Source: Lytechinus pictus (lineage: Eukaryota). From it: a stretch of DNA of 64,000 nucleotides. The stretch is from contig NC_087246.1 of assembly GCF_037042905.1 (NCBI RefSeq), positions 13,780,233-13,844,232 on the forward strand. The letters are read 5' to 3'. How positions within the stretch are numbered: position 1 is the stretch's first letter; every line of letters begins with the position of its first letter. A program made the translations under genes and the position numbers. A model generated the notes under the pieces. That model searched no databases, had not been told where the DNA came from, and worked only from the letters and a program-made list of their open reading frames with translations. Shown here one piece after another: positions 1,714-63,600 of this stretch.

Positions 1714-1799
1714 CTGTAAAAGTTGCAAGGGAAATATAAGATAAGCTGTAAAAATAATGTTTTTAGGGGCACTCAAATTTCATTGTTATTATAACAATT

Positions 1800-20760: not shown

Positions 20761-20805
20761 TTACATATACGCATTTTTTCAGGATCACAAACATTTATAA
20801 TGTTA

Positions 20806-32009: not shown

Positions 32010-32135
32010 AATGCTCTTCACCTAAGAGCCACACGCACATTTGTAGATATGAAGAACCAGACAAGGAAGAATGGTGAGGAGTGGCTGATCACTATGGCTG
32101 ATACAGATGCACACATTCCAGATGTGTATGAGGAG
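32010..32135 (+). CDS. MVP: MVP exon 4 ([42 protein letters not shown]).
   Basis: Matches human [42 protein letters not shown]. Acceptor tttttacag|, donor GAG|gtaaga. Confidence 0.92.
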
Positions 32136-32624
32136 GTAAGAAACTACACCACTCTCCTTTACCTAGTAAGATATTCTTCAAGGACTTGCAGTGTATTCAT
32201 AAAGCACATAATTCCATAAGGAAAAGAAAAATTGTGTTAAAGTTTGGCTAAACATAGACAAGAAGACCAGAATTCTCAAAAGGACTTTGAAGTCATAGAC
32301 ACACACACTTAAATGCCAATAGAATATTATTCCGTAGGATTAGATTCTGTACCCATATACATGTACACTAAAAAATTGAGACCTTTTGAGTTTGACTATA
32401 GATCAAACCTCCTTTGCTGATTGTAGCCATAATGTTTGAATATAAATGAGCTGTTTAAAATAATAAGATGTTGCATTTGTTAAGCTTTTGTAAACCATTC
32501 ATATATTTTTACAACTGATTGAAAGTTTGATATGTATTCAAAACTAATTTGTTGAATTGTATTTTCAAATATCACTTTACAAAACACCCTGAATAATGAA
32601 TATTTTATGTTCTTGTTTCTGATA

Positions 32625-32735
32625 GGTTGTAAGAGTTGTAGACATCAACACATTGACCAATCGCCAGTACTGTGTCATCGTGGACCCTGTCGGGGCCGAT
32701 GGAAAACCACAGCTTGGACAGAAGAGATTAATCAA
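32625..32735 (+). CDS. MVP: MVP exon 5 ([37 protein letters not shown]).
   Basis: Matches human [37 protein letters not shown]. Confidence 0.92.
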
Positions 32736-33449
32736 GGTAAAGAGATCAAAAGAATTTCCCAGCAAGGTTTATTCTTGATTCATTCATTCATTTGTTATTT
32801 ATTAGTCCAAGTTAATCAGTCTGTTTTCTCATTTTATACACTCATTTGACACTATGTCATTAAAATAATTTATAAGAAGTGGGGGTTGTATTCATCTTAT
32901 ATACTGGAAAATTCTTTATTCATATCAGTAATGAAGAATATAGAACACATTTAATTCCACATATAATTCCATTATAGGCTTTACAATTGTCTAATTCCTT
33001 ACTAAATTGTACAGTGGAATCATATTATGAGTGGATCTGATACTTATACTCTTTTGAAATAACTATTTATCACTCTGATAGTACAGAGTTCTACTTTTGA
33101 TGATACAGAGTTCTCACTGGCAGCTTGAGATTTCACAACCTAGCTCATGCTGCAGAATCTTCCCTCCTTTAATACCATGCTCCCCTCATGATTCATGTTG
33201 TGAAGGCTGATTTCCCCAAATGAGAAGATTCTGCATCATGAATGAGGAATCTAAAGCTCCTTATGACAATAAAACATACCACACATCAGCTACCTGTATG
33301 TAGCTTGTTACAACACATCAATAGTAAATCTTTTTTTTTAAACGATAAAAAGGAAGTGTGAACACTTCACTATCGTTTTGTCACTGTATTCATTTTTGCA
33401 TTGTCGATAAATCATAGTTTCTCTCATTTTATCTATTAATTCTTGATAG

Positions 33450-33575
33450 GGTGAGGTGTCTTTCTTCCTTCAACCCGGTGAGACGCTTGAGCAAGGTATC
33501 CAGTCTGTATTCATCCTTGGTGAAGATGAAGGTCTTATTCTCAGAGCCCAGGAATCATTCAAGGATGCCAATGCT
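33450..33575 (+). CDS. MVP: MVP exon 6 ([42 protein letters not shown]).
   Basis: Matches human [33 protein letters not shown]. Consensus splice sites. Confidence 0.92.
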
Positions 33576-34227
33576 GTAAGTCACTTTGAAATTATCATCA
33601 AACGAAAAAAAATGGTTATAAATGAATATTCATCAAACTTTGCACCAGCAAGATGTAGATTTCACATGCATTATTCTTGCAACAGTTGGTGTTACAATAA
33701 AGAATTATGTTTACATGAGCTGAAAGGGTTATTTTATTTCCAAAATAAAAAATGTGAAACATCAGTTTTGCTCTCAAGTTCTTACTGTTTCACAGTGTAT
33801 TCCAAGTGCAAAATCTGGTGCATTTTCCTTGGTCAACATATTAAATGGAAGTCCATTCCATTCATATCATTATGTTTTGTCAAGCTTAGACAGTGTAGAG
33901 GTATTTTTTTAATTTCCCTGGTTTTTATAGCTTAATGACTACTTAGCTTGGATACTTAATTATCATCATCAATAGCATCAAAGGAAGACTTAAGGTTAAT
34001 GTCTGTATGAGTATATGTAGATTATGATGAAAAAATATATATATCTTCAGGGGGGTTGCAATATCTGGCCTTTAGTGCTTTATCCATCCATGTAATATGC
34101 TTATTCTTGATAGTGTTTGAAATTTGTTACTGGAAGCTGAGATATATTGTTATTTAGGTTATATTATGAGTAATAATTACCATCAATTTAGACTAAGTTA
34201 TGCTTCATGATTTTGTCTTTGTTTTAG

Positions 34228-34380
34228 AGTGGAGCAGTTCGTCAGCCAGGAGACAGATGGATGATCAGGGGACCTTGTGAGTATGTACCTCCTGTAGAGG
34301 TAGAGGTCGTCACCAGGCGTAAGGCTATTCCTCTCGATGAGAATGAAGGAGTCTACATCAGGGATACCAAGACTGGAAAG
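34228..34380 (+). CDS. MVP: MVP exon 7 ([51 protein letters not shown]).
   Basis: Matches human [45 protein letters not shown]. Confidence 0.93.
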
Positions 34381-34827
34381 GTACATGTTATTTCTTCTTT
34401 GCAAAACCTGTACATCAAGCTCAATTTACAATGCCTTTATGGCCATAAAAATAGTTTAATGATTGAGAAACGTTGGTCTGTTACCTCAGTTCAAGTTTTG
34501 ACTGATAACAAGATTTAAATAAAATAAGGAGAGCACGGACTTTAAAAATGTGTTAACAATCAGTTTATTCTATTTTTTAGCACTTTTCCTTCCTTCTCAA
34601 ATGTGAAATGAGTTTTCTGTGCAGAAATAATGCCTTCAGTATTTAGTCATTGCTACACAAGACTATCCTTGTAAAAATAGTAATTAATCAATTTTGAAGG
34701 AAAAGGTTTTAATTTCATACTGAATTAAATCGCCAAGCTCTGTCCATTATTTTCGGATCTTACGTCTAACCATCATTAACCAAAAGATAGATCTTTTAAC
34801 TCTGTTATAATGACTCTTCCCCTCCAG

Positions 34828-35063
34828 GTACGAGCAGTAACAGGAGAGACCTACATGCTGAGCCAGGATGAGGAGCTCTGGGCCAAGGAGCTGCCTCCAG
34901 CAGTAGAGGAGCTCCTTCAGAGTGCCAGGGATCCTTTGGCAGACCGTAGTGACAGGAGGGGAGGTGGAGCCTCCAGGGCCAGGGAGAAGACGAGGGTCGT
35001 ATCCTTCCGTGTGCCTCACAATGCTGCTGTGCAAATCTATGACTACAAGGAGAAGAAGGCCAG
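34828..35063 (+). CDS. MVP: MVP exon 8 ([40 protein letters not shown]...[23 protein letters not shown]-).
   Basis: Matches human [30 protein letters not shown]...[25 protein letters not shown]. Anchored on ORF 34810..35067. Confidence 0.93.
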
Positions 35064-35831
35064 GTGAGGATGATTGTCAGTGGCATGATCAACAGCCATT
35101 TATTCATCACTATATTATTCATATTAGAGATCTATCAAATTATGAGGTATCAAGTTTTGTAAATTTTGTAATAATTACAAATCTGCAATGACAGTTAAAA
35201 GCTATTGAAATCATTCAATCTGTTTGACTGATTGTAAATATGTTAAAGAAATAGTGCATTTTTTTATAGCAAGTCTTTATGAAATGAGACCCTGATATTT
35301 TAATTTACTGCAGAATTACAGGTAGAATTGAATATTGGACGCTCTTGGCCCTGTAACATAAATGATACAACCATTTGTACAGATAAGCTTGGATGTGAGT
35401 CTATGGCAAACTTTTTACACAAAGCTGGAATCAATTGTAAATACTGATTGTACAAATTTTAATGTTATAGGGCCCTTGTTTGATAAAGATTTTTTTTCTG
35501 TAAAGTGTACAATGATGAAGTTAATGATAGGCAATGCATTACAACTCTGCAGCTGTTCAAAGCCTTCAAGAGGTCTGAATGCAAAGCCTATAATTTGTGT
35601 ACCGAAGGCCCTCTTGCAGTTTTAAATGTGCTAGTCTTTATGTGAAGACCCATCTGTTGATCAAAGTTTCAATCGGGGTCTGTGCCTGCAGACTAAGGCA
35701 TTATTGCCCAGCAAAATATCAGATCCCATGAAAGATAATAAATTCATAAACGTTAAAATATTCAAGATCATTGTTAATATTATTTTAATCAAACATACAA
35801 ATCATTTTAATATTCTGTTTTTCCTTTCTAG

Positions 35832-36029
35832 GGTTGTCTTTGGTCCTGAGCTGGTCATGCTTGGACCTGATGAACAGTTCACTCAGCTCAGCCTCTCAGG
35901 AGGCAAACCTAAGCGCCCCAACGTCATCAAGGCCCTTTGCCTTCTCCTGGGTCCTGACTTCTGCACAGATATCATTACCATCGAGACTGCTGACCATGCC
36001 CGCCTGCAGCTTCAGCTTTCATATAACTG
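35832..36029 (+). CDS. MVP: MVP exon 9 ([65 protein letters not shown]).
   Basis: Matches human [66 protein letters not shown]. Confidence 0.94.
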
Positions 36030-36447
36030 GTAAGCATGGATAGTTTATGTCAATGGATGTAGTCTTTCAAAAATATTGTTGTAGGTAGTGTATGAGAAAC
36101 AAGGATGTAGATTTATTATCACAAATAAGTGGCTGTTATTGAAAAGATGGAAATATTATCCTTTTGCTCATACAGCAGTTGGAGGGTACAGCCATGCTGT
36201 TTTGCTTTGTAATATGCCTTATTTAGTTCTGAACAAATGATACCCATCTCATATTCAATCAAAGAAAGAATTATAATCCACACAGACCAGCGTTGGGAAA
36301 TAGGGAAGTAGAATTATAAATTTTCATGCATTATTGGCATAACATTTTGATAATTACTTTAAACCAATTTCTATTGCCTCATTCCCGGAGCATCCATCAT
36401 TAAGTATTAAGTTTCATGTTTGTATGTACCCTCCTTCTCAATAATAG

Positions 36448-36592
36448 GCACTTTGAGGTTCCAAATAAGACTGACGAGGTAGCGTCTGCTAAGCTCTTCA
36501 GTGTACCTGACTTCATTGGTGATGCCTGCAAGGCTATTGCATCCAGGATCAGGGGTGCTGTTGCTGGAGTACAGTTTGATGATTTCCACAAG
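36448..36592 (+). CDS. MVP: MVP exon 10 ([49 protein letters not shown]).
   Basis: Matches human [49 protein letters not shown]. Confidence 0.94.
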
Positions 36593-37117
36593 GTACAGTT
36601 TAGCTATGAGAACTTTGATATAAAATGGATGTGAATGAAGGTTGTGCTCGTATGGTTGGACCCTCTACCCACTCAAAAAGAAGATAAGGTCACCTAGAAT
36701 TTTTTTCCTATGAATAAGGAGAGAGCGCAATGTATGTTTGATTGAAGAATGCAAAGGTAAGGGGTTACATTATCGATTGCCTACCTTTTGGATCAGATCA
36801 TGGAAATATCAGTTAAGCTTTGACAATTCTCTTTGTATTCAATTCCTCTGTAAATTAGAATGGAATGTACTAAAATTGTGATTTAAATAAAAGGATGGGA
36901 TGTACTAATATTGTGATTTTTTTATTAAAAGAATATTAATGGAGATTCAAATGGAAGATACTTGTTTTCCCTTTCTCTGACATATTAGAACTAAAATTAT
37001 CCTCTTCATGTTAGTTCCTTCATTTGGATTAATGGGGTATTTATATTTCAGTTATCCATGGAAAGACGAAGTGAGCTTCAAATAAAAAGTATTTATTCCT
37101 CCCTCTTTCCAACACAG

Positions 37118-37329
37118 AATTCTGCCAAGATCATCCGTGCCTCTGTTTTTGGCTTTGACGAGAAGAACAAGGTGAGGGAGTCCTTCCTGTTCCCTCAAAA
37201 TAGCCTAGTGATCACCTCCATTGATATCCAGTCTGTAGAGCCTGTAGACCAGAGGACCAGGGATGCTCTACAGAAGTCTGTTCAGCTGGCTATTGAGATC
37301 ACCACAAACTCACAGGAAGCTGCTGCCAG
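37118..37329 (+). CDS. MVP: MVP exon 11 ([70 protein letters not shown]-).
   Basis: Matches human NSARIIRTAVFGFE...[48 protein letters not shown] (shoulder domain). Confidence 0.94.
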
Positions 37330-37759
37330 GTATGAAAGACATTTACAATCTTCACCAATTGGCTATTGGCAACACTCTAATGCATGAATGCACTCTAAAA
37401 CACAAATAAAAAGTAACAGAGAAAGCGTTTAGCCAGCCATATACCTGGACTTTGTGAAGCAGGAATTCACTTTTGACCACTAACATGAAGAGCAAATTAG
37501 TCTTTGATAATTGATTCTTTGCAATGTATATTGATGTAAAAGTTCAAATACCGTCATTCAGTGCTATTTGCCACAGTTTTTGTATAGAGTTGGTACGGCC
37601 TTCACTCACTCTGAGAAGTATGTATATATGAATCATCACCATTTTGATTTGTTCTTGGAAGTAAAATTTTGTCAGTTATATTTATTTTTTGCACCCAGTA
37701 CTATTGCCATAAAGTAAAAATGAAATTAGTAAGCCACTCAAACTTCACTTCAATTTCAG

Positions 37760-47800: not shown

Positions 47801-50075
47801 GTTATACGACTGGCTATGACTGGCTATAACTAGGACGTAACCAAAGTGGCACTTCTCAACATGTCAAAGACTACATCTCACATTGTACTGATGTTTGATA
47901 GCTTATATCTGATTCCTACTTATGCAAAGACCTGCTACTTGCTGTAAAATTACTGGCCTCGTTTGGGTCATACTCAAAAGGACCTTGGGCCATTTATCTC
48001 AAAACCAAAAGGAAGATTTCTTTGGCATTTAACAAAGTGATGTCAAAAACACAACATAATCAAAACAAACAAATTTTCATACAAAATCTGAAACAAAATG
48101 TACATAAAAAGGTCACTTGCACTTGAGCCCGCAATATCTAAGAGAATCATATACTTCTGAAACCCCTAACATTAAAAAATAATCTAAATTTGAACAAATT
48201 ATAATGAATTTAAAATTTGTATGTAGAATCAAGAATTAGGAAATCTTGAATTGGGATTTGATCCCAATTCATTACTTAATATTAAATAAACTATAAACGG
48301 TCTACTGCCCTTATTACCACAATTATTATTTTATTAGATTTTACACTTTAAGATAAATTGTAATTTTTTTCATGAAAATCCTTCTCGGATGAATAAAAAT
48401 AATATCTCAAAAAAATATACAAAGCAATACTTTTAGCAAAAACATCAAGCTGTATTCAGAGCAGGGCAACTACCACCCTCTTCATTGTCCAAACTATAAT
48501 CATACCCTGTTCACATATGCCACATTGTAAATAGGAACACATAAAATTTCTGTATTTTATTGCAGCATTCTGGCTGACTCATTCAGATACTCCAGTCAAA
48601 ATACTATAATCACTGTGTTCAAACTATCTCGCACTTACCGGGACATCTCCAAAAAAACTCAGTCTGAACGCTCAAGAGAAAAATGCTTTGTTTCCCAATT
48701 TTTCCCCCTGGTTAATGGAAGGATAGGCGATATTCCACTGAACTATGCCATTCAGTGCGACATTCCGATGGGGCGCAGCACAAAATGCGGAAACAATGAA
48801 CTGCTTCCACATGCATGGCAGTCAGCCATGACCTGTCCCCTGAAGATTGGGGCACATGTGAACACTCAATCATAAAAAGAATGACTGACCGTCCCCCGGT
48901 AAGCGGGGAACAGTATGAATGCCAGGATAACTAGAAATTTTGTGTTTTTTTTTTAATAGCATACATTTGACAGGGATTTGACAGTGCTTACCCTTAAACT
49001 GCCTATATGAGTAATATTTACAATAATGATGCTGTATTGGACATATGAACAGGGTACTAGTCAAATATACATTATCTTTTTTAAAAAGATAAAAGATGAG
49101 TGTAAAAGCTACCGCCATACATCACTGAAATCATGTTATTGATTGGCTCAGAGCAAATAAGCAAAATAATTGTAGCAATTGTTTGAACAAGTTTAATGAA
49201 AGAGGGAATAAACATATCCAACTTTCATTAAGATGATTCCCAACGAGTTTAAGTAAATCTACATGTAGCATTGAATTTTGAAATTTTCAAATTTCAGGTG
49301 AAATATGTGAGATTTTTGCTTAGCAAGCTACAGACTACACACTGCTGAGATGACAAACGGATATGTCCCCATTCTCTTAAATACAAGTCTCATTATAGAT
49401 TTTTTTTTTGCCTCAACAGTCATACATTAGACAACATTTCTTTCATGAAGCAAATCTGCATGCCAAGATAGCATTTCATCAACATTTTTCATCCGACAAG
49501 TTGTCAAATCTGACAACTCTCCTTGATTTTGATTGGCTGTGTAGCATGGTAACTATGGTAACCATCAGATAAAACAGGACCTGTCATATAAAACATCCAA
49601 CAAGTCCTATTATTAAATGCTCCCTGAGCTACATCTGTGAAAAGAACTTACTTCTCTCACAACCCTCAGATTCTATGTCCATGTTGAGTTTGAAAAAAAA
49701 TTGATATCAACTGCTCGAGAGCATAGGGGAATATTCCGTATTCAAAGATTTATGTGATCAATCATAACAGCATCAAATAGTATGCAATGCTTCTAAACAC
49801 CAACTTTTGAAAGTTTATATTCTTTCACACATGGATCATTGTACTGGATCACACAAATCACAATTTAAATTCATACTGCAAGAACATAACATATCAATGT
49901 ATCAAACTAAAGCAAACGTGAAAAATATAACAGACAAAATAGTTGTAAGAACGAAGAAAATATTATGTTTGTTTTCTCAAGAATTTGGACAAAATTTACA
50001 CACAAACAATGACACATGATAGCATGCATTAGATTCATTACGTTATGTTTTAAAGACAACATCTCATAGAAAGTC

Positions 50076-50143
50076 CTATTCTTCTTCATAGACCACAACC
50101 TTGGATGACTGCTTGGTCAGCTCAAAATTCAACTTCTCCCATT
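50076..50143 (-). CDS. Putative terminal coding exon of the uncharacterised gene (-EWEKLNFELTKQSSKVVVYEEE*). Stop TAG at 50078..50076.
   Basis: Acceptor ccacacag|AA is phase-compatible with the 1-nt overhang of the 2.1-kb exon. Short charged C-terminal tail. Confidence 0.45.
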
Positions 50144-50951
50144 CTGTGTGGTAGAAATAAAAGATAAAAAATATAAGTAAAATGGTTAGTATTGATTTCA
50201 ATACCAACTGTATATCTAAAATAGTTACATATGTATTATATAATGCTAAATACAATACTCCAGCTTTGTATACATTACCATTAAACCTTTAAGCCTGCAA
50301 TTTATCTTCAGACCTTTTTGATTTACCATGACATTGTAATGCTTTATAGCTTGCATAGTTTCTGTTATAGGTGGCATTTTAACACAAGCATAAACTTCTT
50401 CAATGTGAAGTTAATGAGTTGAATAAATCACTTAGACAGGGGATATCCTGGTAAAAAAAATCAATAAACATGTACATGTGCAGTCTGTCTGAATTCTGAA
50501 TGAAAGCCTTTTTTATTAAATACACTGTATGATGAATAATAGCAAATCAGTGACAAGGTAAAAAGTAGTGATAGAGTTCTCATACCATAGCATCTTTAGA
50601 TACGTTGGTCAAAGATTAATGTAAAATTTTCAATGAAATCTCTCCAATTATCCTCATCATTTCCAAAGTACATGTATTTAGTATTAATAGTTAAATAATA
50701 AGGAATTCCTTAAACCTTGAAGTCCATTTTTTAAATGAAATATGAAACAAACTTGAATGAATTTAAAATCACAACATAGTTTTTACATCATGCACATAAA
50801 ATAATGGCATTATTCTCTTTATAATTTTGGGCAAAAGCTTTTCCATATTCTACATTCAATCATTCTCTTTTTAATAATTAGTTTGACTTGTGCATGGTAT
50901 CATGATCAAAGTTTTCTTCATTTTAAATGAATTAATCAATAATTAACTTAC

Positions 50952-53108
50952 CTTTCTGAAGCATATCTGCCAATTCCGAGTGGTTGAATCTGGCTGTCCA
51001 ATATTGCTCTCGATCCATCGACTTCTTCTTCAGGTTATTATTCTCTCCCACTGTGGTATGAGGGATATTGTTCTTATTGCCACTTGCAAGAATGGCAGCA
51101 AGGCTTGCAGGTACTGATGGCACTGTAGAGGTACTGTCCGGAGTAGTCTTCCGGATATGGTGATTGTCACTTTTGTCAATGTTCTGGGGACTCTTGGAAA
51201 TCCAAGCCTTTTCCAGATCAGCACAACTGACCTGGTTAGGAGGTGGAGATGGAGAGCTGGCATTGGTTTGATTCTCTGGGTTATTGACAGGAGAGGGTTG
51301 AGGCACAGGCTTGGAATCAGATTTACCCTTTGGCTGTTGGTTGCTTTGCGTCACATCATCAATCAGTTCGAAATCACTCTCGCAGAATTTCACTGAACCA
51401 AACGTAATGTCAAAGCTATCAGCTGGCACTGCTTCAAAAGGGAAGGAGTTGTCCTGGATGACAGGAGTACCCTCTGACGTCAAGTTAAGGCTAGTTTCAG
51501 ATTTGACTGTCCGCATACTGTCCTTGTCTTTAGTATTGGCACTAGATGATTTCTTGGGCACCACTGCCGGAGCAGGTGGTGCAGAGTCGAGGCTTACAGC
51601 TTTATGGCTGCTCTCTAGTTTACTTGCCCTAGCTGGTTTCATATCATCACTAGCTTTTGATGTATCCTGCTGGGTGCTAAGTACTTTACTCAGTGTTTTA
51701 GTGTCTGTTGACTTGTTAATGCTTTGTTTAAGGCGTGCTGCGTAAGTGTCATTGGAGCATTGCAAGTCAAGATATTGCACAACATTATCTGCACTTGTAT
51801 TGTCCAGTTTTGGCAACTCGGCATCCGGTATACGGCCCATATCACGTGGGAGACTTGCTGATTTGGCAGCTGTCGCAGCACCAACTACACCACTACCATA
51901 TGCTTTGGCAGGAATATCACTAAGATCAGTCTGACTGTCCAATTCTCCAGTAGTAGATGATGTAGAAGACTTTGTTTCAAAATTGTCCTTTACTTCTGGT
52001 GGCTTTATCAAAGGAGGGTCTTGTTGCTGTTCTCTGCCATCTGTTGCACTACAAGTAAGAGAAACTGAAAGTGTTTTACATGGACTATCATCCGCTTTGC
52101 TTTCCTGCTGATCTCCAACAATGAGCTGATTTTCCTGGGTTTTTTTAACACTCCCACTAGGAGGAACAGGTGGTTTAGCTTTAAGTTTGGCTGCATAAGA
52201 GTTGGCAGAAACTGGTGGGGGAGGTTTCTCAGCACTCTCGTCTGTAGGTATACTGTCTGGTCTAGGCGATAAGCTGTGAAACTCCTCTCTCAGATTATGG
52301 TGGCGGGAAAAGGAAGCATGCCTATGTACTGGTCTATTATCGCTCACATCCATCCATTTGGACATGCCCGATGGCTCACTGCTGGATTTACGTAATTTAG
52401 GATCAAATGGTCCACTGTAATAAGAGCGTCGGAGGTTATCTGCAGGTGAAGGTCTAAAACTGTATCTATCCTCTGCAGCATATGCCCTCCTCTTGCTCTT
52501 CTTTATTCCATATGTTTGCCACTCACTACCATTTGCTTCATCTTCATCACGAAAATTCTCGTCCATGGAGCTCTCTTGGCTTGCCTTTATACTTGTATCC
52601 TCGCTGCTTTTTCCTGCATCATTTCCACTTTCTGATTCATTATCAGATGTATTGACTTCCTTTGCAGCACTTTTATCACCATCTAATTTAACCAACTTAT
52701 CATTTAAAGGCTTTTTATCATTTGAAGATTGATGTGTAGTCCTTAGAGCATCATCTTTATCTGACATGTCTAGTGATTTTGGCCGGTCAGGCTTCCCAGA
52801 AGAAACTCTCTTGTCTGATTTGTTGATGGCTTTGTTGTCTTCAAGAGTTGAATCCACTAGTTTCTTTGCATTATTTGTCTGTTTCTTGTCATTTTTGTTT
52901 TCTGTTTTCTTATTCTTCGTTGAAGGTGCAGATGATTTAGAAGGTGCTCCACTGGGTCCATTCAGAGTTTTTAAATTGGACGAAGATTGTGAGACTGCAT
53001 CTGTTATTTTATTACTGTCTTCTGCCCCAGATGTGCCCGGTGATGTAAGTGCTTTGTTCTCATGATCAGATGAGTTGGCTGTTCCACCTGGATCTGCTTC
53101 AGTATTTC
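50952..53108 (-). CDS. Exon 3 of the uncharacterised gene: 2157 nt, about 719 aa, S/T/P/K/D-rich and low-complexity (…YWTARFNHSELADMLQK-).
   Basis: Contains ORF 50932..52857 (641 aa) and extends upstream in frame to acceptor tttctgcag|GA at 53108. Donor AAAG|gtaagt at 50952. Low hydrophobicity and no repeats of a simple unit, so it is not a microsatellite artefact. Confidence 0.8.
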
Positions 53109-54440
53109 CTGCAGAAATATGATAACAAAATACAACTCGTGTTAATGACTTCTCTGTATATCATGAGATTGAACATTCAAAGAACATGTACAAAGGAGCT
53201 ATCACTATTGGTTTACAATATTTTTTTAACAATCGAAACAGCCTAAAATAGGACCACAACCAATTATGAATCCCCCTTCAGAAGATACCATTCTCAAGTT
53301 TAAAAGACATACCTAAATTTAACAACCCCCCCCCAAAAAAAAATAAAAAAATATCACTGAAGGTGATTAATACCCCCACTCTATGCCGTTTCCATGGTAA
53401 TGCAATTTCCAACACAAGGAATAAAATATGTCTTGCCCATCTTCACCCCAAGACCAATGTGTCAGCCAAATTTCATGAGAATTCGTTAAAAGTAAAAAAA
53501 AATGATAAAGTAGTTTACCTAATTTTTGCCATATAACATGTTGTTACACTGGCAAAACAATTTCTAACACATGCATAAAATTAAAAATGTGTCTTGCACA
53601 TCTATAATATCCCAAGACAAATATGTTCAATTTCATAATTGGTTTATAAAAACTGAGGAAGTACATGTAGTTCAAACTGCAAGATGCCAATGATACTAAA
53701 AGACATCAACTACATGTACAGTAAGTCACATTTATCAAATTGATCTTATGAAGTGAGGCTGTAGTTACGGTAACTGTTTGTGGTAAGTGACATCGAGTAG
53801 CTCAATCAAAAATTTTCCTGGGGGGTGGGATACATGTAGATAATAATATATTAGATGACTTTATTTATGGATACCAGAAATATTCCACTCATCTTTGATT
53901 CATGGAATATTTGCTAAAACTCTTGGAATATCTCTGGTAGTCCATTCTGGGCCATCTAATATAATATAAATACCCATATGTGAAAAATCAGACCTAAAGG
54001 AAAGCTGGCAAATTTATGATACAAAAACGGTTTTCAATGAGGGAAGCTGCTCACATACTGTAAGCTTTAGCACCATCCCGGGTCAGGATGAAATTGATAA
54101 CAAATATGATTGGAAGCCTGCAAAAACAGGATATCATAACATTCGAGACTGATAAATTTAACCATGAAATTGACAAATCATGCATGCAAATAATCTTTCT
54201 ATAATTTTTTCATTTAAAGTTTGAAATTTAAAATGAGAAAATGCGAATATACATGTAAATAGCGAAATTTTAATCGCTCTAAACCAGCTTAGATTTTTAA
54301 TTCCTTTTACATTTACTATTAATTGTTACACCAATAATGATAAAATCAAACCTAGACCCGAAAGAAACAGTCAGGAATTTGTCTGTTCAACTGTACCGTC
54401 TCAGCTATACTCGAAATACAACGGAATACAATCAACTGAC

Positions 54441-55506
54441 CTTTCTTTTTCTTTTTCCTTTTTCTCTTCTTCTTGGTGGGTTCATCTGCCATTTCGGGAC
54501 CCCCTAAGCCAATACCATCACCAAGCACTTCTGCTGTACTGCTTGCAGTTGGAGAGACTTCATCCTCTGGAGATGAAACAGCATTGACACCAGCAGATGT
54601 TTCAGGAGATTCAATGCTTCCATAGTTCTTTGGCAGCTTGCTGCTACATAGTCCCTCTTGCTCCCTACTGCTATCTACATGCAGTTTCACAGGCTGCATC
54701 TCCCGCTCCACAGGTTTCTCAACGACATTATTACCCAGGTTGCGGCGACTAAAGTCACTACTGCCTGACACATAGTTCAAAGCTACGGCATCAGAATGGT
54801 CAAGGCGCTCACTGTCAATGTACTCAGGTTTAGGACACGTTGAACTTTCTGGGAATTCAGAAGCATCAACTATATCTACAGCACGATTCATCAATTTGTT
54901 TATTGTATGTGGGGAAGGGCTGGAAGCAGATGCATTACTTCCTTGAGTACTGTCACAAGATTTTTTCTTTGTTGAAAGCAATTTATTTGAATTGGTGTTT
55001 TTAACACTGTTCTTTTCATCTACCTTTGGCTTGTTCACAATACTGCTAGTTGCACTCAGTTCTAATCCAAATGATATGTTAGCCCCAATATCAACATTGC
55101 TGTGATGAATTTCATTTTTAACTTGAGTGTCCTTGTTTGCTAGTGTTCCATGCTTCTTGCCAGTGACATGACTGACATCTTCCTTCTTTTCTTGAGGGGT
55201 TACATTATTCAAACATTTATCATTCACTGCATGTTTCAATTGGACATCAGATTTTTCTTCAGCAGACGCATTCTTGACAGAAGTAACTGAAAGTGCTGTA
55301 GTCTTGCCATCTACCCCAGCACTGATGCCTGCAGTTTCATCTGTGGCAGCCATATGGCAAGAAACAGTCTGTGCTTTCGGGGGATCACAGGGATGTTGTT
55401 CAAATACCAGAGGCTGAAAGTCGGTGACAGAGCCGGTAATCAAAATATCAAATTCCTTATCTGGTAGTTCAGCTATCCGTCTTGCTGTCTCTTTCAGGCG
55501 ATCAAT
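54441..55506 (-). CDS. Exon 2 of the uncharacterised Ser/Lys-rich gene (IDRLKETARRIAELPDKEFDILITGSVTDFQPLVFEQ ... EPTKKKRKRKKKKK-), 1066 nt.
   Basis: Long open frame, part of ORF 54352..55536. Acceptor ttctatacag|ATT, donor AAAG|gtcagt. Contains a classical basic NLS-like cluster. Phase-compatible with the exons on both sides. Confidence 0.7.
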
Positions 55507-57561
55507 CTGTATAGAAAAAACAGAAGCAAAGTACAAGCAGTGAACATTCAGTATTTCCGCAAATCACAATACCGCACCGAACTATGACATCATATCATAA
55601 GCAGATTTTGTATTTCATATATTTTTTAATATACATGTAGCTCAGAGGAGCATGATGGAATATATCAAAAGCCCAAATTTGGTAAGAATTGGCTTAATTG
55701 GCTCAAGATACAGTATATCAATGAATACCAAATCAGCCCCACTGAAGTCAATGCAAATGTTTTCTTAAAGCCCATCTTAAGCTTTGGTAAAGGGTCAGTA
55801 ATGCAAACAAGCACAATCGTCATCGAATGCATTTTTTTATCATTAGAATTTAAATATGGCATATTTTATGGCGGTTAGGATTTAAATTTAAATCTAGTGA
55901 ACTCTCTCAGTGATGTTTTAATTTTTAATTAAAATAGCCATTTGAGCACAAACTTTTATACATACATGTACATATGTATATGTAGTTTCTGTAGTTATAT
56001 TAGAAAGCTACTGACAAAGATTAGATACTGAAATTTTCAACCCATTCCATGCTTGAGAAGGTATAAACTAGACAAAAATATGCAGATATTTTATTTTGAT
56101 CGGGCACCCAACCGAATTAAAATGTAACGAAAAATCTGTAAATTTATCCAATTAAAACACGTTTTAAGTTTAGATCCTTCACACCACAGCCACTTGGAGC
56201 ACATGCATTAAAATAATCCATTAATGAAATGGAATACATGTAGTGACATGCACTTTGGGGGGTTTACTTAAAATAAAGATAGGCTTTAATACACATTACA
56301 TGTACTTTTTACCCTCCATCATAACATTACCTATAAAGCAGCCCTTTGAAATGCCAAGAGTATGTGTAAAACTCTAGGTCATAAGTTTTTACAACTGTGA
56401 ACAAAGTTAAATTTCAATAATTGTTTGTGTGATTTTTCTTTCAAAACTGCCATGTTTTCTCCATTCTTTTCAAATAAATTTCCATTTTGGGTTGAACTTG
56501 GATCAGGATGCCCCTTCAACTGCACAAAAATAATGCTTTATTTGCTGTCCTGAGATACATGCAAATAATGGCGAGCAATTGTGCAATTCAGATTTTGTTG
56601 TACTTAATATTCCTTCAATCCAGTGTCTTTGGCAAAAAAAAAATCCAGCATTTTAATGCATGAACCCAAGGTACTGTACGTACATGTATGTATACTTAGC
56701 TAAACGTCAAGAGCATTTAAGCATGCATGTTCCCTGAAAACCATGGGCGGTATTCTGAGATCAATTATCCTTGAAATTGTTTATTTTACCTCTAAAATGA
56801 AATTGGTATTCTGAGATCAATTTAACCTCTCTAGTCTGGGACTAAAAATTTCATATTCATCTCAGATAAATGTTAATTTTTAATCATGTGTATAGATGAT
56901 ATGCAACGAACGGAGCAGTGCCTATGTAAAAATCCATCGCTTTCTAACCATTGCAACATAGATGATGTGCTCGCTCCCATGTTACTTTGAAGATAAAAAC
57001 AATACGCTTAAAATAGGGTGGGGCTATTTCATCTCTGCGTTATCAATTTCAGCAAAATTTCTAGGTGAATGTTAAACTAAATTGAAACGATTAAAGACAT
57101 GTTAGCATATATAATGCAAGCGTATTTGAATGTATTGAAATTGATGCACTTGCTCATTTGCCTCACTTCTGGGCAGAAAGGATTTTCATTGGTTGAATGC
57201 TGAGAAAGCTAAAAGCAGCTACAAACTAGCAACTGTAATAGCACTGTAATAAGTCCTCTCTACTCACATCTTGCCAGCAAAATGCTACATTCAGAGCTGT
57301 GTGTGTAGTCTTGTCGTATGCCCAAAATTGAATGATAACATCTAATTCACCACTCAATTCAATCATACAAAATTACATGTAATTGCATGTATGTATACCA
57401 CGGTAGCAATATTACATGTATGTACATGTAAGTACTTTCCCCTCACATACATTTCAGTTTCTCTATTAAATTGAAGGCTAGTTTATGAGCTGTATTATTG
57501 ATGATTATCTCAAATGTTTATTTTTAAGACTACATGTACTTCATAATTGCACACAGTGACG

Positions 57562-57604
57562 TGTGGTCTCTGACAGACTGTGACACAGTCTGTCAGAGAC
57601 CACA
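57562..57604. repeat. Perfect 43-bp palindrome (tgtggtctctgacagactgtg-a-cacagtctgtcagagaccaca).
   Basis: Arms of 21 nt are exact reverse complements. Immediately preceded by tgacgtg. Confidence 0.9.
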
Positions 57605-57939
57605 CAAAATGTTGGTCAGTTTGCTTCCCCTTCAAACAGCCATTCTTAATGGACATTGCTTCATATTAGGCATGCTATATACAAGGCTACATGTACATGG
57701 TATGTAATGATGTACATGTATATAAATCATTTGAGATTCATGTGCATGTACATGTACTTGTAACTAAATTCCACCAACTGGCATTCCGCCATATGATGCA
57801 TTTGTGAATGTAAATACTTAATACTTCCATATGGCCAGCATAAGCAACAGTGACTGTTTTAAGATTGTATTCTTCACCAAGTAAAGGATTACCTGATAGA
57901 CTCTATTCAATACATTTCTAATGCAATGTGCTACCTGCA

Positions 57940-58215
57940 AGCCAGGGCCCTGGGAACGATTTTTTTGGCTGGGGGTGCTGCAGTAAATTTGACATGCAAA
58001 AAAAAAAGGCCTTCACTACGAAATGAAGGTCGTTTTAGTCCGAATAAATTTGACAAGCAAAAAAAAAATGTAGTTTTGGTCTTAAAGTATTATGATAAGC
58101 AAAGAAATAAAAAGGTTTTCACTACAAAATGAAGGTCGTTTTGGCCCAAAGAAATCTGACAAGCAAAAAAAAAAAAATCTTGGGGGTGCTGAAGCACCCC
58201 CAGCACACCCGCTCC
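57940..58215. repeat. Second member of the aaatttgacaagcaaaaaaa / cactacgaaatgaaggtcgtttt repeat family, bounded by the inverted pair gggggtgctg ... cagcaccccc.
   Basis: Three copies of the gacaagc+A10-13 motif, two copies of cactac(g/a)aaatgaaggtcgtttt, and termini ggctgggggtgctgcag / gggggtgctgaagcacccccagc. Confidence 0.5.
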
Positions 58216-59639
58216 CCAGGGCCATGCCCCACAGGCGATGTGTAACCCCTGTATGATAACTGACACCCCCCCTAGAAAATGAAAGCTGAATATATTTTTT
58301 CAAACCAAAGTATTGTTATGAACAGCAAACTAAAGTGTACTTAAGGGGAGCATGTTTAGTCTTTGGTCATTTGTCATATCAAAGGTGAAGTCCACCCCAG
58401 GAAAATGTTGATTTGAATAGAGAAAAATCAAACTAGCATAATGCTGAAAATATCATCAAAATCAGACGTAAAATAAGAAAGTTATGACATTTTAAAGATT
58501 TGCTTATTTTTCACAAAACGGTTATATTATATGCACAACTCAGTGACATGCAAATGAGACAGTTGATGATGACCCTCACTCACTATTTCTTTTGTTTTTA
58601 TTGTTTTAATTGTATACAATATTTCATTTTTTACAGATTTGACAATAAGGACCATGTTGACTCAACCATATGGTATTGTACAATGCTAATTCCACATGTT
58701 CAGGGAGGAATTAATCATTGTTTCACTTGACAATGAGGAGAAAATTAGAATATTTCGTATTTCAGAAAGAGTTCCATATGCACCCCCCACCAAAAATAAC
58801 AAGATTGTTGAGACTTCCGGTTCGTTCACTTCAGATTTTTTTTACTGTTGGCACCTTAGTTGGGACTCGAACTCACCACGTTTTATCTGCATGTCAAGAC
58901 CTCTTCCCGCTATGCTAGCGAGAAGCGCTGATACCGGAAGGGGTATTTTAACTATTATCAGCCGATAGTTTGACTAGTCTTGTCTCACAGACCCTTTACT
59001 GACTAAATAAACTGATGTCTATGGACAATTACACAGACTAGATCCTGTTCGAAATATGACAGAATAAAGCCATATTTTATTTCCACTCCCCCATCATATA
59101 CATGTATGTTCTAATATCGGGCTAGATATATTATTCTAAACCTTCTCCATGTTTTTATTTTCAATTTTAGTGGGGGTGCATATGGAACTCTTGCCAACAT
59201 TTCATATAATAAAATACAAAAAAAATACTTGCATCGGCTGACAAATATCATGAATCTTTAAATTTTAAGGCAAGATTCATATTTATCCGCCGATGCAAGT
59301 ATTCTTTTAGATTAAGTTAGCACTGTTCATGATATTGTCGCCCTCTATACGTGTCTGGTAGCTAAGCTACAATAACAAAGACGGCAAGATGGTGACGATA
59401 ACAGACTGTGAGTAGATCTAAACGCTCCTCTTTTAATAATTTCATGTATTTAAACGTAATTGTACTAAAAAAAACAATGATTTTTGGCCAAAAGTTGCAA
59501 ACCAATATTGTAGGCCTAGCCCATTTATGATGGTGGTCCCCAAGTCTGCGCACCTAACAACTTCAGTTTGAATTTAATATGAATTTCTTTTTCACAAAAT
59601 CTTTCAGATATACAATGTTCCTTATGAGTATGGCAAGTT

Positions 59640-60080
59640 CCCCTACATGTAAGTCTGCGCAGTCCCCCTTGTCTGCGCATACGCGTATCTGCGCGATTCT
59701 AGTAAAAGAAGATACGCAACGAACACAAACTTTACACATCTAATGCATAGACAGATATTAATTACAAAATCCGACTCACAATGGTGGAAAAATAATGAAA
59801 TTTTGGCATTTCTTGTGACGGCCTCAAAATGCAGCCTTTCTCATCAAAATCCCCGAATTGCATGCAAAGTGAATGGTTGCGCAGACATGGGGCAAAATTT
59901 TTTGTTCAATCTGATAATTTGAGTCAGATTTTTTAATGAATATCTATAATCTGTCTACCGTATGTAGTGCATGTGTAAAGTCTGTGTTCGCTGCGTATCT
60001 TCTTTACTAGAAATTAGATTTAGAATAGCGCAGATACGCATGTGCGTAGACAAGGCAAGGGGGACTGCGCAGACTTGTCT
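59640..60080. mobile_element. Foldback or MITE element with about 100-bp inverted arms (59640-59740 and 59975-60080).
   Basis: Arm core gtctgcgcagtcccccttgtctgcgcatacgcgtatctgcgc...ctagtaaaagaagatacgcaacgaacac is mirrored by gtgttcgctgcgtatcttctttactag...gcgcagatacgcatgtgcgtagacaaggcaagggggactgcgcagac. In intron 1 of the Ser/Lys-rich gene. Confidence 0.6.
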
Positions 60081-60440
60081 TGACTCTTGCCTTTCTTGGA
60101 CTTGGGCCGAGTTGGGGGAACTTGCCAAGTTTGGGCTCAATCCAAAAGGCCTGGCTTAAGAAAACAAGTATTTTGGAGCAACATTTATTGTATCCCAATT
60201 CCTCGGTGCGTTAGAGCAATGGCATCCTGTCCCTGGCTCCATGGAGATTTCATTAAGCACGTTAGTGATATGACATCTCCACTGGAGTCAGTGGAGACTC
60301 CAGGAGCCTAGCTGGGGCCTGGCTGCGAATGTGGCCTGTGCTGTGCACACACACTTAACTGCCAGTGCAGTGCAGTGTATTTACTGTGTGGAGGGGATGA
60401 ACTGAAAGTGAAAAATTTATCCTTGTTTAACAAAATTTAC

Positions 60441-60602
60441 CTCTTCAGTAGGAAGACTAGATGGTATCAAGTTGTCATACACTTCTAGAAATACATCAGC
60501 ATTCTCTTGTTTAAGTGCCTTGGCTAAAAGAAGTACAACGTTATTCCTGTCCACCCCGAAATGTGTTAAACTATTATGGTCACATCTTCCACTGTCTGCC
60601 AT
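60441..60602 (-). CDS. Putative first coding exon of an uncharacterised Ser/Lys-rich protein gene (MADSGRCDHNSLTHFGVDRNNVVLLLAKALKQENADVFLEVYDNLIPSSLPTEE). ATG at 60602..60600 in Kozak context aaaATGG.
   Basis: Non-repetitive coding-like composition. Donor GAG|gtaaat in phase 0, matching the phase-0 acceptor of the next exon (55506). Part of ORF 60417..60665. Confidence 0.5.
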
Positions 60603-63600
60603 TTTTGGGTAGACAGTGTTGTTATGGCCTAACTGCGCATGCTCAGTTCCATTACAAACGAGCAATCTTGCCCGCGATGAATTGTCTGTCCAAGAAATGA
60701 CTACACCTCTTGATAATAGGCCTATCTTAAGTCGGTATTATATTAAGTGTACGCAAAATTCAAGCAAAACAGACACGAATTCTCGTAGGAGACTTACCCA
60801 TTAGCATTATATACTCTTCTGAATGATAGAGGAAAAACGGAAATGTTATTAATTTGTCACGATTTGTAGTGGGTTTCCTCATATGCCGGAATGGTACAGC
60901 CAGATTTTGTCATGGAAGAGGTGTGTACGAATAGTACACGTATACCATTGGTGCATATCATGCACGCGCCGAAGCACTTCGCGAATGATCTCATGAAAAA
61001 AAATATTGAGATCGGTCAAAGGTCTTTTCCACTCCAATAAATATCTTGAACTAAAGCAATATGATATTTGATTCAAATTTTTGGCATGAATCGGGTTTTT
61101 TTTTCTTTTACGTCTAGTCTCATAAATATGTGATGAACGAACAATGAAAGGTATAATGTATGTTTTCTTCTTACAAGTGAAAGAGTATAACCCCGGAAAT
61201 GGATAATGGATGCACGCCCACTTGCAAGTCATACCAAATTTGAAGTGAATACTAATGGTGTGAATACTGAGGGGGGGGGGGGGGCTTTTTAAAGAAATGT
61301 TTTCAGTTTTTTTTTATATTGGGGTGACCATGTGAGCCTATAAACTTGAAATTATTTTCATAATCAGGCACTCAGAGAGAAGGTGAAGTAGTTTGAGCCC
61401 GGGTATTGAGGCTTCAGAGAGAAGTTATAGATTGAACATTTCTACATCTTCTTTTGATAGCCTTCAGAATTACCGGAAATAGAACATCGACGGGTCGCTC
61501 ATGCAGTAGCGAGAGAAGTTACAAATTGAGCAGGCCCACTTGTTGTTGTTTGTTCTTCGACAAATTTTGTTCGTGACGAGTAACTTGCATCCAAGCCGGT
61601 GCTGAGGACAGCCCCCCCCCCTTAATTCTCTATAAACACAAAATAAAGAAATAGGCATGCATGCAAAAAAAAAGAAAATGAAGATTTGAGAAGTGAATTT
61701 GATAAATCACTTATTCATTACTTAGGCCTATCCATTTATATCCCCCCCCCCCACCCGTGCTTTGCATCCAATAGCCAATGCATGCAGTAGCAACCGGCAC
61801 CAATTAAGGGAAGAGGCATGAGGGCTTCTGCCCCCCCCCCCCCCTGTCAAAGCATTGCCCACCCCCCCCCCCCCAATTTCGAACACTGAAAAAAATGAAA
61901 TGCTTTCTTGTCCGCCTCTGCCCTCTCCCCCTCCTCCCCCCCCCAAAAAAAAAAGAGAAACTCTTCTGCCCCCTATCATAAACATACTGTTGCCGCTACT
62001 ATCCCAATTGAGCATTTCACATATTGTTTTAGCTTTCCGAAGGCTATCAGCATAAACGAAATTCTCAAGGCCATTAAAAGCAATTAAATGGGTACTACAG
62101 GCTGAAAATAATATTTGAACAGATAAAGAAAAAATCAGGAAAAAAAACACTTAAAATCTGATCAAAAATCGAACAAAGAATAACAAGGTCATGACATGGC
62201 ATTAATTTGCATAATGGTTAGTCGCGTGCATTTGAGTGTCCGAAAGTCCCTACACACAGCTTCAACACAGGGAACAGTGGTTTTCATGAACGTAATATTG
62301 CAGAAATCCGGGTATATCTTTATAACTATTGATAATCTCACACCAGATTGATAATAGTGTGAAAATTTTGTCCAATTTCATTAATTTGATGTAAATATTA
62401 TTACAATTAACTAACTATTTACGTCTCGCTGTTCATTTGAAAGTGCCCATGTTCACAACTCTTGCTATGGCAAATGGTCTAAAACCACCCATATTTTCGA
62501 GACGCTGGCACCTTTGTTTTCCCATTGGAATATCCCTAAGGGTCAAGAAGGTCGAGATTGATTGTCATCTCAATGCTAAATAGATTACCTACTGTTTGAT
62601 GTATAGTACTTTATGGCTGGTATAATGGTTACATCTTATTTTTCTCCCAAACTTTGAGATCGAGCAGGCAGAACATGGCATATTTCTGTGTAGAACGTCA
62701 CGTGACTAACGTATGATAGTTTCCGTTCCTAGACCTTTTTCATTTGAAACAATTAATACAGTCCAAACAAACTTAATCAACGAATTTAATGTTGAAAGTA
62801 ACAATGTTCTTGTACTATAAAGCTTTGCCTACTGATATTTATAATATAGCTACAGTTTTAGAAAGCAAATATCGAGTCCGGAATTGATTTTGATTTGCAA
62901 TAGGGTCTGCGTAAATACACTACATACTAGCAGGCTAGCATCGTCTGCTACGTAAACCAAATGAGCGAATATGACCGAAACTAACCATTATGTGAAACAT
63001 TTTCCATGAATATTCAATGAGCAAATTGAGGTCATATCCCTAATTGTTCTTTTTGTTTTGTTTTTTGTTCTTTGTCCGAATACAAGTTTTATCCGCCTAG
63101 ACAATTAATTTGTGGAAAGCCTGACGAAATACTTATAGGGCCTATGGTTTTCTTGTATCATCATCATCATCACCACTTATTTCAGTCAGCATTGATATTT
63201 TTTAAGTGTTCGTATTATATCAATTACAAAATTGAATAAGGATTATTAAACGATTGCAAATCATACGAACACAAGATGGTTACACAAAAAAGGAAGGTAA
63301 CGGCAACAACAATAATTATAATAACCTTAATTCACATAAAACTTGATCTTTCATTTGTATTTCATATGAAATTATGTTTATTCAAATTTTGTCCTCCAAG
63401 AACTAAATAAATTGGATCAAAAATTAATTTAATGCACAATATATTAACAACTGCAACTTATTTTAATATATGGGATGCAAATCATTTACACGTGTAAAAA
63501 TAGGAAGTAATTATTATTTCAACAACATAAGAACAAAATGAGTGGATATGACATCATCAGCAAGACTAATGAATTTTCACAACGACGTGCATACTGTTTT

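Follow-up and report, generated by a model that had tools for sequence, protein, structure and literature searches.

The 64,000-nucleotide stretch of Lytechinus pictus DNA analyzed here (contig NC_087246.1; hereafter the window) carries on its minus strand a gene of four coding exons that lies tail-to-tail (convergent) with an MVP gene, the latter situated on the + strand at ~30491..37400 and beyond and recognized by Pfam matches to Vault_2, Vault, Vault_3 and MVP_shoulder (E 1e-11 to 1e-35). The four-exon gene is the subject of this report. A first-pass annotation, made by a model from the letters alone, had proposed four phase-compatible exons with consensus splice sites, a product of ~1150 amino acids (aa) and the convergent orientation to MVP, and each of these proposals was borne out. 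AG acceptors and GT donors stand at every internal border of the exons (coordinates in Table 1), the exon phases are compatible (0, 1, 1), and the open reading frame (ORF) of 3453 nt encodes 1150 aa and ends in a TAG stop at 50078..50076. The product is the same as NCBI XP_054749259.1 of L. pictus (100% identity, 100% coverage); NCBI already has a prediction of the gene, and the first-pass model equals the Gnomon model exactly. The gene is therefore real and uncharacterized, and its existence is not new. The description of it as the most novel coding content of the window holds insofar as its family is unnamed outside vertebrates and fails insofar as the gene was already in NCBI. The name given to XP_054749259.1, "dentin sialophosphoprotein-like isoform X2", is misleading and a compositional artifact, because the protein has no repeats and only a single DSS triplet.

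Expression of orthologs was observed in RNA-seq-derived contigs (L001-L003) of 3.4-4.1 kb with an uninterrupted 3.27-kb ORF, which aligned to the window by blastn as blocks 55507..54440, 53110..50952 and 50145..50060. Among the predicted junctions, those between exons 2 and 3 and between exons 3 and 4 are confirmed by these contigs, and the last exon runs on as a 3' untranslated region (UTR) to at least 50060. No transcript showing the junction of exons 1 and 2 was found among the orthologous transcripts; the basis for that junction is the Gnomon models of several species and, in six taxa, a phase-0 intron located at one and the same residue, with the donor kept after ..LPTEE, the end of coding exon 1. 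Further database fragments were single-exon ORFs running into introns. Transcript alignment also extended the gene in the 5' direction, an extension that the first-pass annotation had left to such data: the first block of contigs L002 and L003 (nt 5-95) maps to a non-coding leader exon, with a donor GTAAGT starting at 60797, that is joined straight to exon 2. In the visible orthologous transcripts coding exon 1 is thus skipped and a short isoform results. This accounts for the annotation of short forms next to long ones in Lytechinus (1045 aa, from Met106 onward) and Strongylocentrotus (1092 aa). Both long and short isoforms are annotated in L. pictus, L. variegatus, S. purpuratus and Diadema. 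Coding exon 1 is used alternatively, and it may be either a cassette exon or an exon with its own start site. The ratio of nonsynonymous to synonymous substitution rates (Ka/Ks), calculated against two orthologous cDNAs, was 0.23 and 0.155 over the full length and <0.42 in every computable 115-aa bin, and the whole length of the protein is under purifying selection; the Diadema ortholog is 46% identical over the full length.

The protein is rich in Ser (13.9%), Lys (9.9%) and Asp (8.2%), with a grand average of hydropathy of -0.92 and an isoelectric point of 5.9. It had been described as a Ser/Lys/Asp/Pro-rich low-complexity protein, a description of which the bias stands and the repetitive low complexity does not. 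Sequence entropy was 3.3-3.9 bits per 50 aa, self-BLASTP of the 1150-aa protein revealed no internal repeats, and Tandem Repeats Finder found no tandem arrays of more than ~2 copies in the exons, its one row there being weak (exon 3, 39 bp, 1.9 copies). There is one DSS triplet, the longest run of Ser is 3, and 30 S/T-x-x-D/E sites are present. The protein is compositionally biased and predicted to be disordered, yet it is not repetitive low-complexity sequence.

An AlphaFold2 (AF2) model computed from the full-length alignment had a predicted local distance difference test score (pLDDT) below 50 in 1063 of 1150 residues (~92% predicted disordered), in agreement with the first-pass division into a short, non-repetitive N-terminal segment and more than 1000 residues of disorder. 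The sole confident elements were an N-terminal four-helix domain (residues 19-78; hereafter the N-domain) and a C-terminal helix (1119-1143). The helices of the N-domain comprise residues 19-31, 35-45, 52-66 and 70-80 (70-78 in the full-length model), and the mean pLDDT of 10-residue blocks was 58-86 over residues 21-80; for the C-terminal helix, block means were 78 and 71 over residues 1121-1140. Searches with Pfam on the 1150-aa protein (E up to 1) returned zero matches of any family, a search of PDB sequences with the N-domain profile gave nothing below E 0.2, and in a word-indexed search the same profile matched nothing but unnamed ORF fragments the size of an exon, with neither named nor vertebrate proteins among them. 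Within the disordered body, the alignment of echinoids out to Diadema contains a series of near-invariant islands: TCPxPEY..DHxDAxALN; KKKRKRKKKKK; SDHENKxLTSPGTSGAEDS; NEWQTYGxKKSKRR; RRSYYSGPFDPKLRKSSSEPSG; NSYAAKLKAKPP; AAKSASLPRDMGR..DNTSADNVVQYLDL..DTYAARLK; QDNSFPFEA..SFDITFGSVKFCESDFELID; QVSCADLEKAW; and the tail YWxAxFNHSELADMLLKEWEKLNxELTxQSSKVVVYEEE. Among these are the K/R run, likened to a nuclear localization signal (NLS), and the charged tail that had been picked out in the first pass, the run being nearly invariant in echinoids. The segment with the second [ST]YA[SA][KR][LV]K copy (Table 1) includes a short AF2 helix at residues 865-873.

An exhaustive hmmsearch of 1.84 billion representative proteins with an echinoid profile gave 13 matches in all. 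The distant matches (E 6e-9 to 1e-4) cover the N-domain only. The relatives are from Asterias (1276 aa; XP_071789550.1, XP_033628324.1), Saccoglossus (LOC100373064, 820 aa), the amphioxus Branchiostoma lanceolatum (XP_066292381.1, Hypp371, 760 aa), Lottia (LOTGIDRAFT_238395, 369 aa) and Capitella (CAPTEDRAFT_208999, 444 aa), plus two unnamed sequences. They share with the urchin protein an N-domain of consensus FLEVYDNxIPxxLPxxxIDxLKExARxLAELPxxEF that is split by a phase-0 intron. The full-length relatives also have the K-run, the [ST]YA[SA][KR][LV]K motif, an (I/V)TFG (FG) block and the C-terminal tail; the [ST]YA[SA][KR][LV]K motif occurs in every family member, those of amphioxus, acorn worm and sea star (SYASKVK) among them. 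They differ in length (369-1276 aa), in the LRKSSSEP block, which was seen in echinoderms only, and in an extra tail intron in amphioxus. Eight relatives, amphioxus and acorn worm among them, matched no Pfam family at E up to 10, and the relatives either are labeled "uncharacterized" or carry differing spurious labels, for example "nucleolar protein dao-5-like" or "NOLC1-like". No member has been named as a relative of NUFIP2 or characterized functionally, and the link to NUFIP2 developed below appears to be new. The Lottia (P0033) and Capitella (L009) models end by or soon after the K-run and have neither giant exon nor tail. They look truncated, the alternative being that protostome members are truly shorter; by our motif patterns, no giant exon or tail was found within 10 kb downstream of the Capitella model.

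NUFIP2 (82-FIP) is a core stress-granule protein, an adaptor in cytoplasmic ribonucleoprotein (RNP) granules, whose partners include FMRP, Roquin, DDX6, ATXN2L, G3BP and GABARAP, and it has been studied in the contexts of fragile X, immune regulation and amyotrophic lateral sclerosis/frontotemporal dementia. In the human protein, residues 255-411 bind Roquin-1 directly (dissociation constant 182 nM) and also bind FMRP aa 1-132, the two interactions being mutually exclusive, and bind RNA weakly (PMC5775257). Binding of Roquin or the FMRP N-terminus and presence in stress granules are known for human and mouse NUFIP2 (PMC5775257, PMC4598758). NUFIP2 is also a stress-granule protein associated with DDX6 (PMC4598758) and binds GABARAP on damaged lysosomes (PMC7615515); going by the title of the first 82-FIP paper (cited in PMC4598758), its localization is cell-cycle-dependent. 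Within the literature searched, all work on NUFIP2 uses vertebrate cells, and no account was found of an invertebrate NUFIP2 homolog or of the urchin gene.

The strongest connection between the urchin family and NUFIP2 is in the structure of the genes. Each protein was mapped exactly onto its genomic locus, for six members of the family (urchin, Diadema, Asterias, Saccoglossus, amphioxus and Capitella). Three introns are common to the first five of these, and the truncated Capitella model has only the first two. Intron 1 is in phase 0 inside the N-domain (..LPxxE|(I/V)DxLKE); intron 2, present in every mapped member, follows the K-run immediately and is in phase 1 (KKKKK|G); and intron 3 is in phase 1 in the tail (..(K/R/A)|(E/D/T)W..). 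Between introns 2 and 3 is a giant exon of 1251-2295 nt. In amphioxus an additional phase-1 intron in the tail delimits an exon of 33 nt, YLYR|EWEQTFKQCQE|DPTKVQYY. In fish, the NUFIP2 coding sequence is interrupted in phase 1 behind a stretch rich in K (KKT|E); a giant exon of 1698 nt follows, and then a 33-nt exon with phase-1 flanks, the tail being YHTK|EMEYILNLQKQ|DPNRVVLY. The alligator gene has a giant exon of 1704 nt, both tail introns (YHTK|EMESIWNLQKQ|DPKRIITY) and a phase-1 acceptor before G(F/Y)xELNG at the same place; the 5' exons of this gene model look unreliable. All three mapped introns of fish NUFIP2 have same-phase counterparts in amphioxus and two of the three have them in urchin, namely KKKKK|G and LQK|E, both in phase 1, which enclose the 2157-nt exon 3. 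That exon, predicted to be disordered and holding the conserved short motifs, is the counterpart of the NUFIP2 giant exon. The tail introns fall on residues that hhalign had aligned before the introns were examined (QK|E versus TK|E). By our estimate, the chance that two random introns coincide within the ~100-nt tail is roughly 2e-4, a figure that splice-site sequence preferences would raise somewhat.

Four database proteins, the echinoid fragments P0026, P0012 and P0018 (..ADMLQKGKKNF..) and the NUFIP2 of Erpetoichthys P0153 (..YHTKG NVILQ..), read through the tail intron. They are mis-predictions, yet they happen to show where the conserved phase-1 intron lies.

The lead to NUFIP2 had come from the tail, LRKSSSEP and SYASKVK elements, which resemble the human protein; the database NUFIP2 sequences were fetched with a human query (97% identity). 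All 120 of the NUFIP2 matches listed were vertebrate proteins with PF15293, and a reference alignment of 14 species was assembled. Comparison by hhalign of the cross-phylum family with this 14-sequence profile gave a single match, in which the extreme C-terminal tail of one family aligned with that of the other, ungapped over ~34 residues, at E 0.0043 and a probability of 8%; the conserved tail element of NUFIP2 is SFDLRAAIVYHTKEMESIWNLQKQDPKRIITYDE. Full-length comparisons of hidden Markov models (HMMs) with sequences, NUFIP2 against the family in both directions, were noisy with mostly negative scores and were replaced by HMMs of individual blocks with shuffled controls. An HMM built from the family tails only had its best match at the NUFIP2 C-terminus (within 15 aa of the end) in 80 of 105 sequences, with scores up to 5.7 bits against a 99th percentile of 0.7 and a maximum of 5.1 among decoys, a consistent pattern of low statistical weight. 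An HMM built only from the echinoderm LRKSSSEP..SYAAKLK block aligned in one domain to LRKSSD..KPPPVFPVDN..SYASKVKENL of NUFIP2, with a best score of 9.8 bits (per-sequence P 7e-5); SYASKVK was covered in 108 of 113 NUFIP2 sequences, and 0.4% of the shuffled decoys reached the median real score. The spacing of the LRKSS and SYA anchors is 65 residues in urchin and 59 in sea star, compared to 54-57 in NUFIP2.

When only the products of the giant exons were compared by hhalign, four weak matches were obtained, in the same order in both families. Two of these pair SYAAKLK and YAARLKQSINK (E 0.062) with the same NUFIP2 segment, YASKVKENLNK; one pairs GSVKFCESDFEL of the SFDITFGSVKFCESDFELID block with GALVFLSKDYEI (E 0.45, weak, collinear); and the fourth pairs tail with tail. 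By eye only, EWQTYGIKKSKRR resembles NUFIP2 SGYTTPKKRKARR. The core of the fragment of NUFIP2 that binds Roquin and FMRP is LRKSSD..DSWTLFKPPPVFPVDNSSAKIVPKISYASKVKENLNK, for which the urchin protein has the anchors LRKSSS and SYAAKLK (and TYAARLKQSINK) at similar spacing, while the center of the fragment, DSWTLF..VDNSSAKIVPK, is without clear conservation in urchin. In one NUFIP2 sequence (P0041), LRKSSD..SYASKVKENL occupies positions 302-368, inside the range of aa 255-411. Taken by themselves, these similarities would do no more than suggest a link to NUFIP2.

The urchin protein and NUFIP2 are both largely disordered and encoded mainly by one giant exon; in both, a phase-1 intron comes after a K-rich stretch; both have LRKSS(S/D) with [ST]YA[SA]K[VL]K ~55-65 residues further on, and a G-x-x-x-F..D(F/Y)E(L/I) block; and the C-terminal tails of NUFIP2 and the family are weakly similar and interrupted at the same residue by a phase-1 intron, amphioxus also having the second matching phase-1 intron and with it the 33-nt exon. 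In contrast to NUFIP2, the urchin protein is ~450 residues longer, and it has the four-helix N-domain, split by its phase-0 intron, plus ~330 further residues before the K-run, whereas the N-terminus of NUFIP2 is His/Gln-rich and lacks most of what is encoded by exon 2 of the family. The urchin gene also lacks the second tail intron. As such, the urchin protein is a divergent architectural variant and not a routine member.

Because the shared introns occur together with collinear motifs, we regard common ancestry with NUFIP2 as the best explanation and as highly probable; orthology, as distinct from common ancestry, is probable. On this basis the locus is most likely the L. pictus member of an unnamed bilaterian family that is the invertebrate counterpart, and probable ortholog, of vertebrate NUFIP2/82-FIP, an assignment that we consider likely. 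The earlier statement that the protein matches no family is correct for routine searches, with no Pfam match, but gene structure and collinear motifs tie it to NUFIP2. Several observations weigh against this assignment. The NUFIP2 model PF15293 did not match the urchin protein (E up to 1) or the eight relatives (E up to 10), the hhalign probability was 8% in the full comparison and no higher than 1.8% for the giant exons only, and the HMM-to-sequence scores were all below 10 bits. At E up to 0.001, the echinoid profile failed to recover NUFIP2 from among 1.8 billion proteins. The most conserved cores of NUFIP2 (DSWTLFKPPPVFPVDNSSAKIVPK, LGDIFQNQWGLSFINEPSAGP) have no clear counterpart, and DSWTLFKPPPVFPVDN, likewise among the strongest, is not recognizable in urchin; NUFIP2 lacks the N-domain that defines the invertebrate family, and no N-domain-like ORF was found in two NUFIP2 loci, 10 kb upstream included. 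The regular expressions for the motifs were, furthermore, written after both families had been seen.

Several of these observations would also be explained if the genes formed an independent invertebrate family of disordered proteins, defined by the N-domain and without NUFIP2 ancestry, in which the motifs and tail were convergent or due to chance and the function was unrelated to FMRP/Roquin granules: sequence scores are marginal throughout, PF15293 is silent, the defining domain is absent from NUFIP2, and NUFIP2 was not recovered in the exhaustive search. Against such independence stand three introns that share both phase and aligned residue, including those around the 33-nt micro-exon in amphioxus, fish and alligator, a residue alignment that predates inspection of the introns, motifs that are collinear and similarly spaced, and a tail match that lies at the extreme C-terminus in both families, and we judge it unlikely. 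The first-pass annotation had favored, speculatively, a nuclear or nucleolar phosphoprotein-like scaffold. A Ser/Lys/Asp-rich composition, a strong K/R run and the 30 S/T-x-x-D/E sites would suit an acidic-basic scaffold of the NOLC1/treacle/dao-5 type or a dentin-sialophosphoprotein-like protein, as would the automatic names "dentin sialophosphoprotein-like", "nucleolar protein dao-5-like" and "nucleolar and coiled-body phosphoprotein 1-like". However, these names vary across species within one orthologous family, as is typical of compositional matches. The likeness to NOLC1, treacle and DSPP extends to composition, predicted disorder and basic NLS-like runs, and is compositional only; the alternating acidic/basic repeat modules of NOLC1/treacle type and the DSS repeats are absent, there are no tandem or internal repeats and no match to a family model, and the conserved elements are unique short motifs and not repeated acidic/basic modules. 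We regard this proposal as very improbable. Finally, the long ORFs might not have belonged to one gene at all, having instead arisen by chance or being pieces of some other transcript or a pseudogene. We found no support for this, the sole gap being the exon 1-exon 2 junction, and the data on transcripts and selection refute it: exons 2, 3 and 4 are joined in spliced transcripts of orthologs, Ka/Ks is well below 1 throughout, and the Diadema identity extends over the full length with the same exon structure in five other taxa.

Under the assignment to the NUFIP2 family, the urchin protein would be a disordered, motif-bearing adaptor and not an enzyme. Its parts would be the N-terminal four-helix domain, an NLS-like signal in the K/R run, short docking motifs and an amphipathic C-terminal helix, the putative docking motifs being EWQTYGxKKSKRR, LRKSSSEP, the two [ST]YA[SA][KR][LV]K sites and ITFGSVKF..DFELID. 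By analogy with NUFIP2, the LRKSS..SYAxKxK region may dock RNA-binding partners, for example the N-terminal domain of FMRP or Roquin, and the protein may be a client or scaffold of messenger ribonucleoprotein (mRNP) and stress granules. The K-run could give the protein nuclear access and allow it to shuttle to the nucleus, and the C-terminal helix and short motifs could place it in mRNP granules. The choice of coding exon 1 would decide between a long form with an intact N-domain and a short form that uses a downstream start and lacks it. Since exon 1 choice would add or remove the N-domain, this domain looks like a regulated module, and an N-terminal domain with isoform-level regulation appears not to have been described before. 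What the analysis shows is the structure of the gene, the expression of its orthologs, purifying selection, the profile of disorder, the distribution of the family and the correspondence with NUFIP2 at the level of introns; partner binding, granule localization, NLS activity and the functional meaning of the isoforms are inferred.

The genomic surroundings of the family were also considered. In amphioxus (L005, 5464..9634) and Saccoglossus (L006, 592..4798) the family gene is head-to-head with a CDIPT-like gene (CDP-OH_P_transf, PF01066). No CDIPT was detected by tblastx or tblastn in the 3 kb upstream of the urchin gene that the window holds. The order of genes at human 16p11.2 is PAGR1, MVP, CDIPT, CDIPTOSP, SEZ6L2, ASPHD1, KCTD13, TMEM219, TAOK2 (PMC11781945), and at 17q11.2 human NUFIP2 has TAOK1, SEZ6 and CRYBA1 as neighbors within 1.69 Mb (PMC4886423). 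Because of the paired names SEZ6/SEZ6L2 and TAOK1/TAOK2, these arrangements fit a duplicated ancestral block of which one copy kept NUFIP2 and the other MVP and CDIPT; a caution for the NUFIP2 assignment is that this paralogy of 16p11.2 and 17q11.2 derives from paired gene names and not from computed synteny. A broader scenario, which in our view has about even prospects of being right, is that NUFIP2 descends from an ancient bilaterian gene with an ancestral four-helix N-domain that was switched by use of exon 1 and lost in vertebrates, that the gene originally sat in the MVP-CDIPT neighborhood and its 16p11.2 copy was lost following genome duplication, and that the SYAxKxK and tail-helix elements are ancient docking sites by which RNA-binding proteins of FMRP and Roquin type are linked to RNP granules throughout animals. 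In human, CDIPTOSP, named as an "opposite strand pseudogene", is arranged head-to-head with CDIPT, the neighbor of MVP, and it is conceivable that CDIPTOSP is a relic of the lost 16p11.2 copy of the family.

If NUFIP2 does predate the vertebrates, sea urchin, amphioxus and acorn worm could serve as models of its ancestral function, deep conservation would indicate that, in a disordered protein with few other features, the functional core probably consists of a handful of short motifs plus one C-terminal helix, and the NUFIP2 family would gain a new small helical domain with regulation at the level of isoforms. A set of misleading automatic names is corrected as well. If the link is wrong, an ordinary, already predicted, conserved disordered protein remains.

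Table 1. Features of the NUFIP2-like family gene in the window (coordinates in nucleotides of the window; residues of the 1150-aa product)
Feature	Coordinates	Strand	Evidence or remark
Leader exon, non-coding (5' UTR)	~60798..60888	-	blastn of contigs L002/L003
Coding exon 1, residues 1-54	60441..60602	-	Start codon and first half of N-terminal helical domain
N-terminal four-helix domain part 1, residues 19-54	60441..60548	-	AF2
Coding exon 2, residues 55-410	54441..55506	-	Second half of N-domain, then disorder up to K/R run
N-terminal four-helix domain part 2, residues 55-78, IDRLKETARRIAELPDKEFDILIT	55435..55506	-	AF2, alignment
NLS-like run KKKRKRKKKKK, residues 399-409	54442..54474	-	Directly before phase-1 intron
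Coding exon 3 (giant, 2157 nt), residues 410-1129	50952..53108	-	End codons split by phase-1 introns
EWQTYGIKKSKRR motif, residues 605-617	52486..52524	-	Core invariant in echinoids
LRKSSSEPSG...KPPPPVSANSYAAKLK block, residues 648-719	52180..52395	-	Echinoderm HMM versus NUFIP2
DNTSADNVVQYLDLQCSNDTYAARLKQSINK, residues 845-875	51712..51804	-	Second [ST]YA[SA][KR][LV]K copy
SFDITFGSVKFCESDFELID block, residues 974-993	51358..51417	-	Invariant in echinoids; kept in sea star and acorn worm
C-terminal tail part 1, residues 1112-1129 (YWTARFNHSELADMLQK and first base of Glu-1129 codon)	50952..51003	-	Ends at phase-1 intron
Last exon, coding part, residues 1129-1150 (EWEKLNFELTKQSSKVVVYEEE) and TAG	50076..50143	-	ORF, contig alignment

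The left part of the window (1..11335, minus strand) holds exons of an unconventional myosin motor, including NPFKEISGLYDD, the P-loop and switch, of a gene that runs off the left window end; its best PDB matches were myosin I and myosin Va (E ~2e-35). MYO18A lies near human NUFIP2, and the window myosin was considered as a possible class XVIII synteny marker. This was dropped, given its canonical motor motifs (GESGAGK, DIYGFE) and its PDB matches to myosin I/V; the protein does not look like the divergent class XVIII. Inside the myosin region, a tandem repeat at 1773..2220 (overlapping copies 1818-2173), with a related copy at 13050..13197, yields long minus-strand ORFs that are Asp/Gly-rich and Met/Val-rich, and is probably intronic satellite-like DNA.

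Other repeats were noted in the window. Between the myosin and MVP genes are placed a 222-bp direct repeat (24018..24239 and 24856..25077; 98% identical, 838 bp apart) and three inverted pairs of 68-89% identity (20803..20987/21433..21249, 29075..29309/29689..29447 and 8877..9011/16239..16102), which look like transposon remnants or terminal repeats. The 4.9-kb intron 1 of the family gene contains an interspersed repeat of ~270 bp (58382..58644) that recurs, inverted and 72% identical, at 13832..14092, and near it is a 70-bp direct duplication (57999-58068 and 58105-58174).

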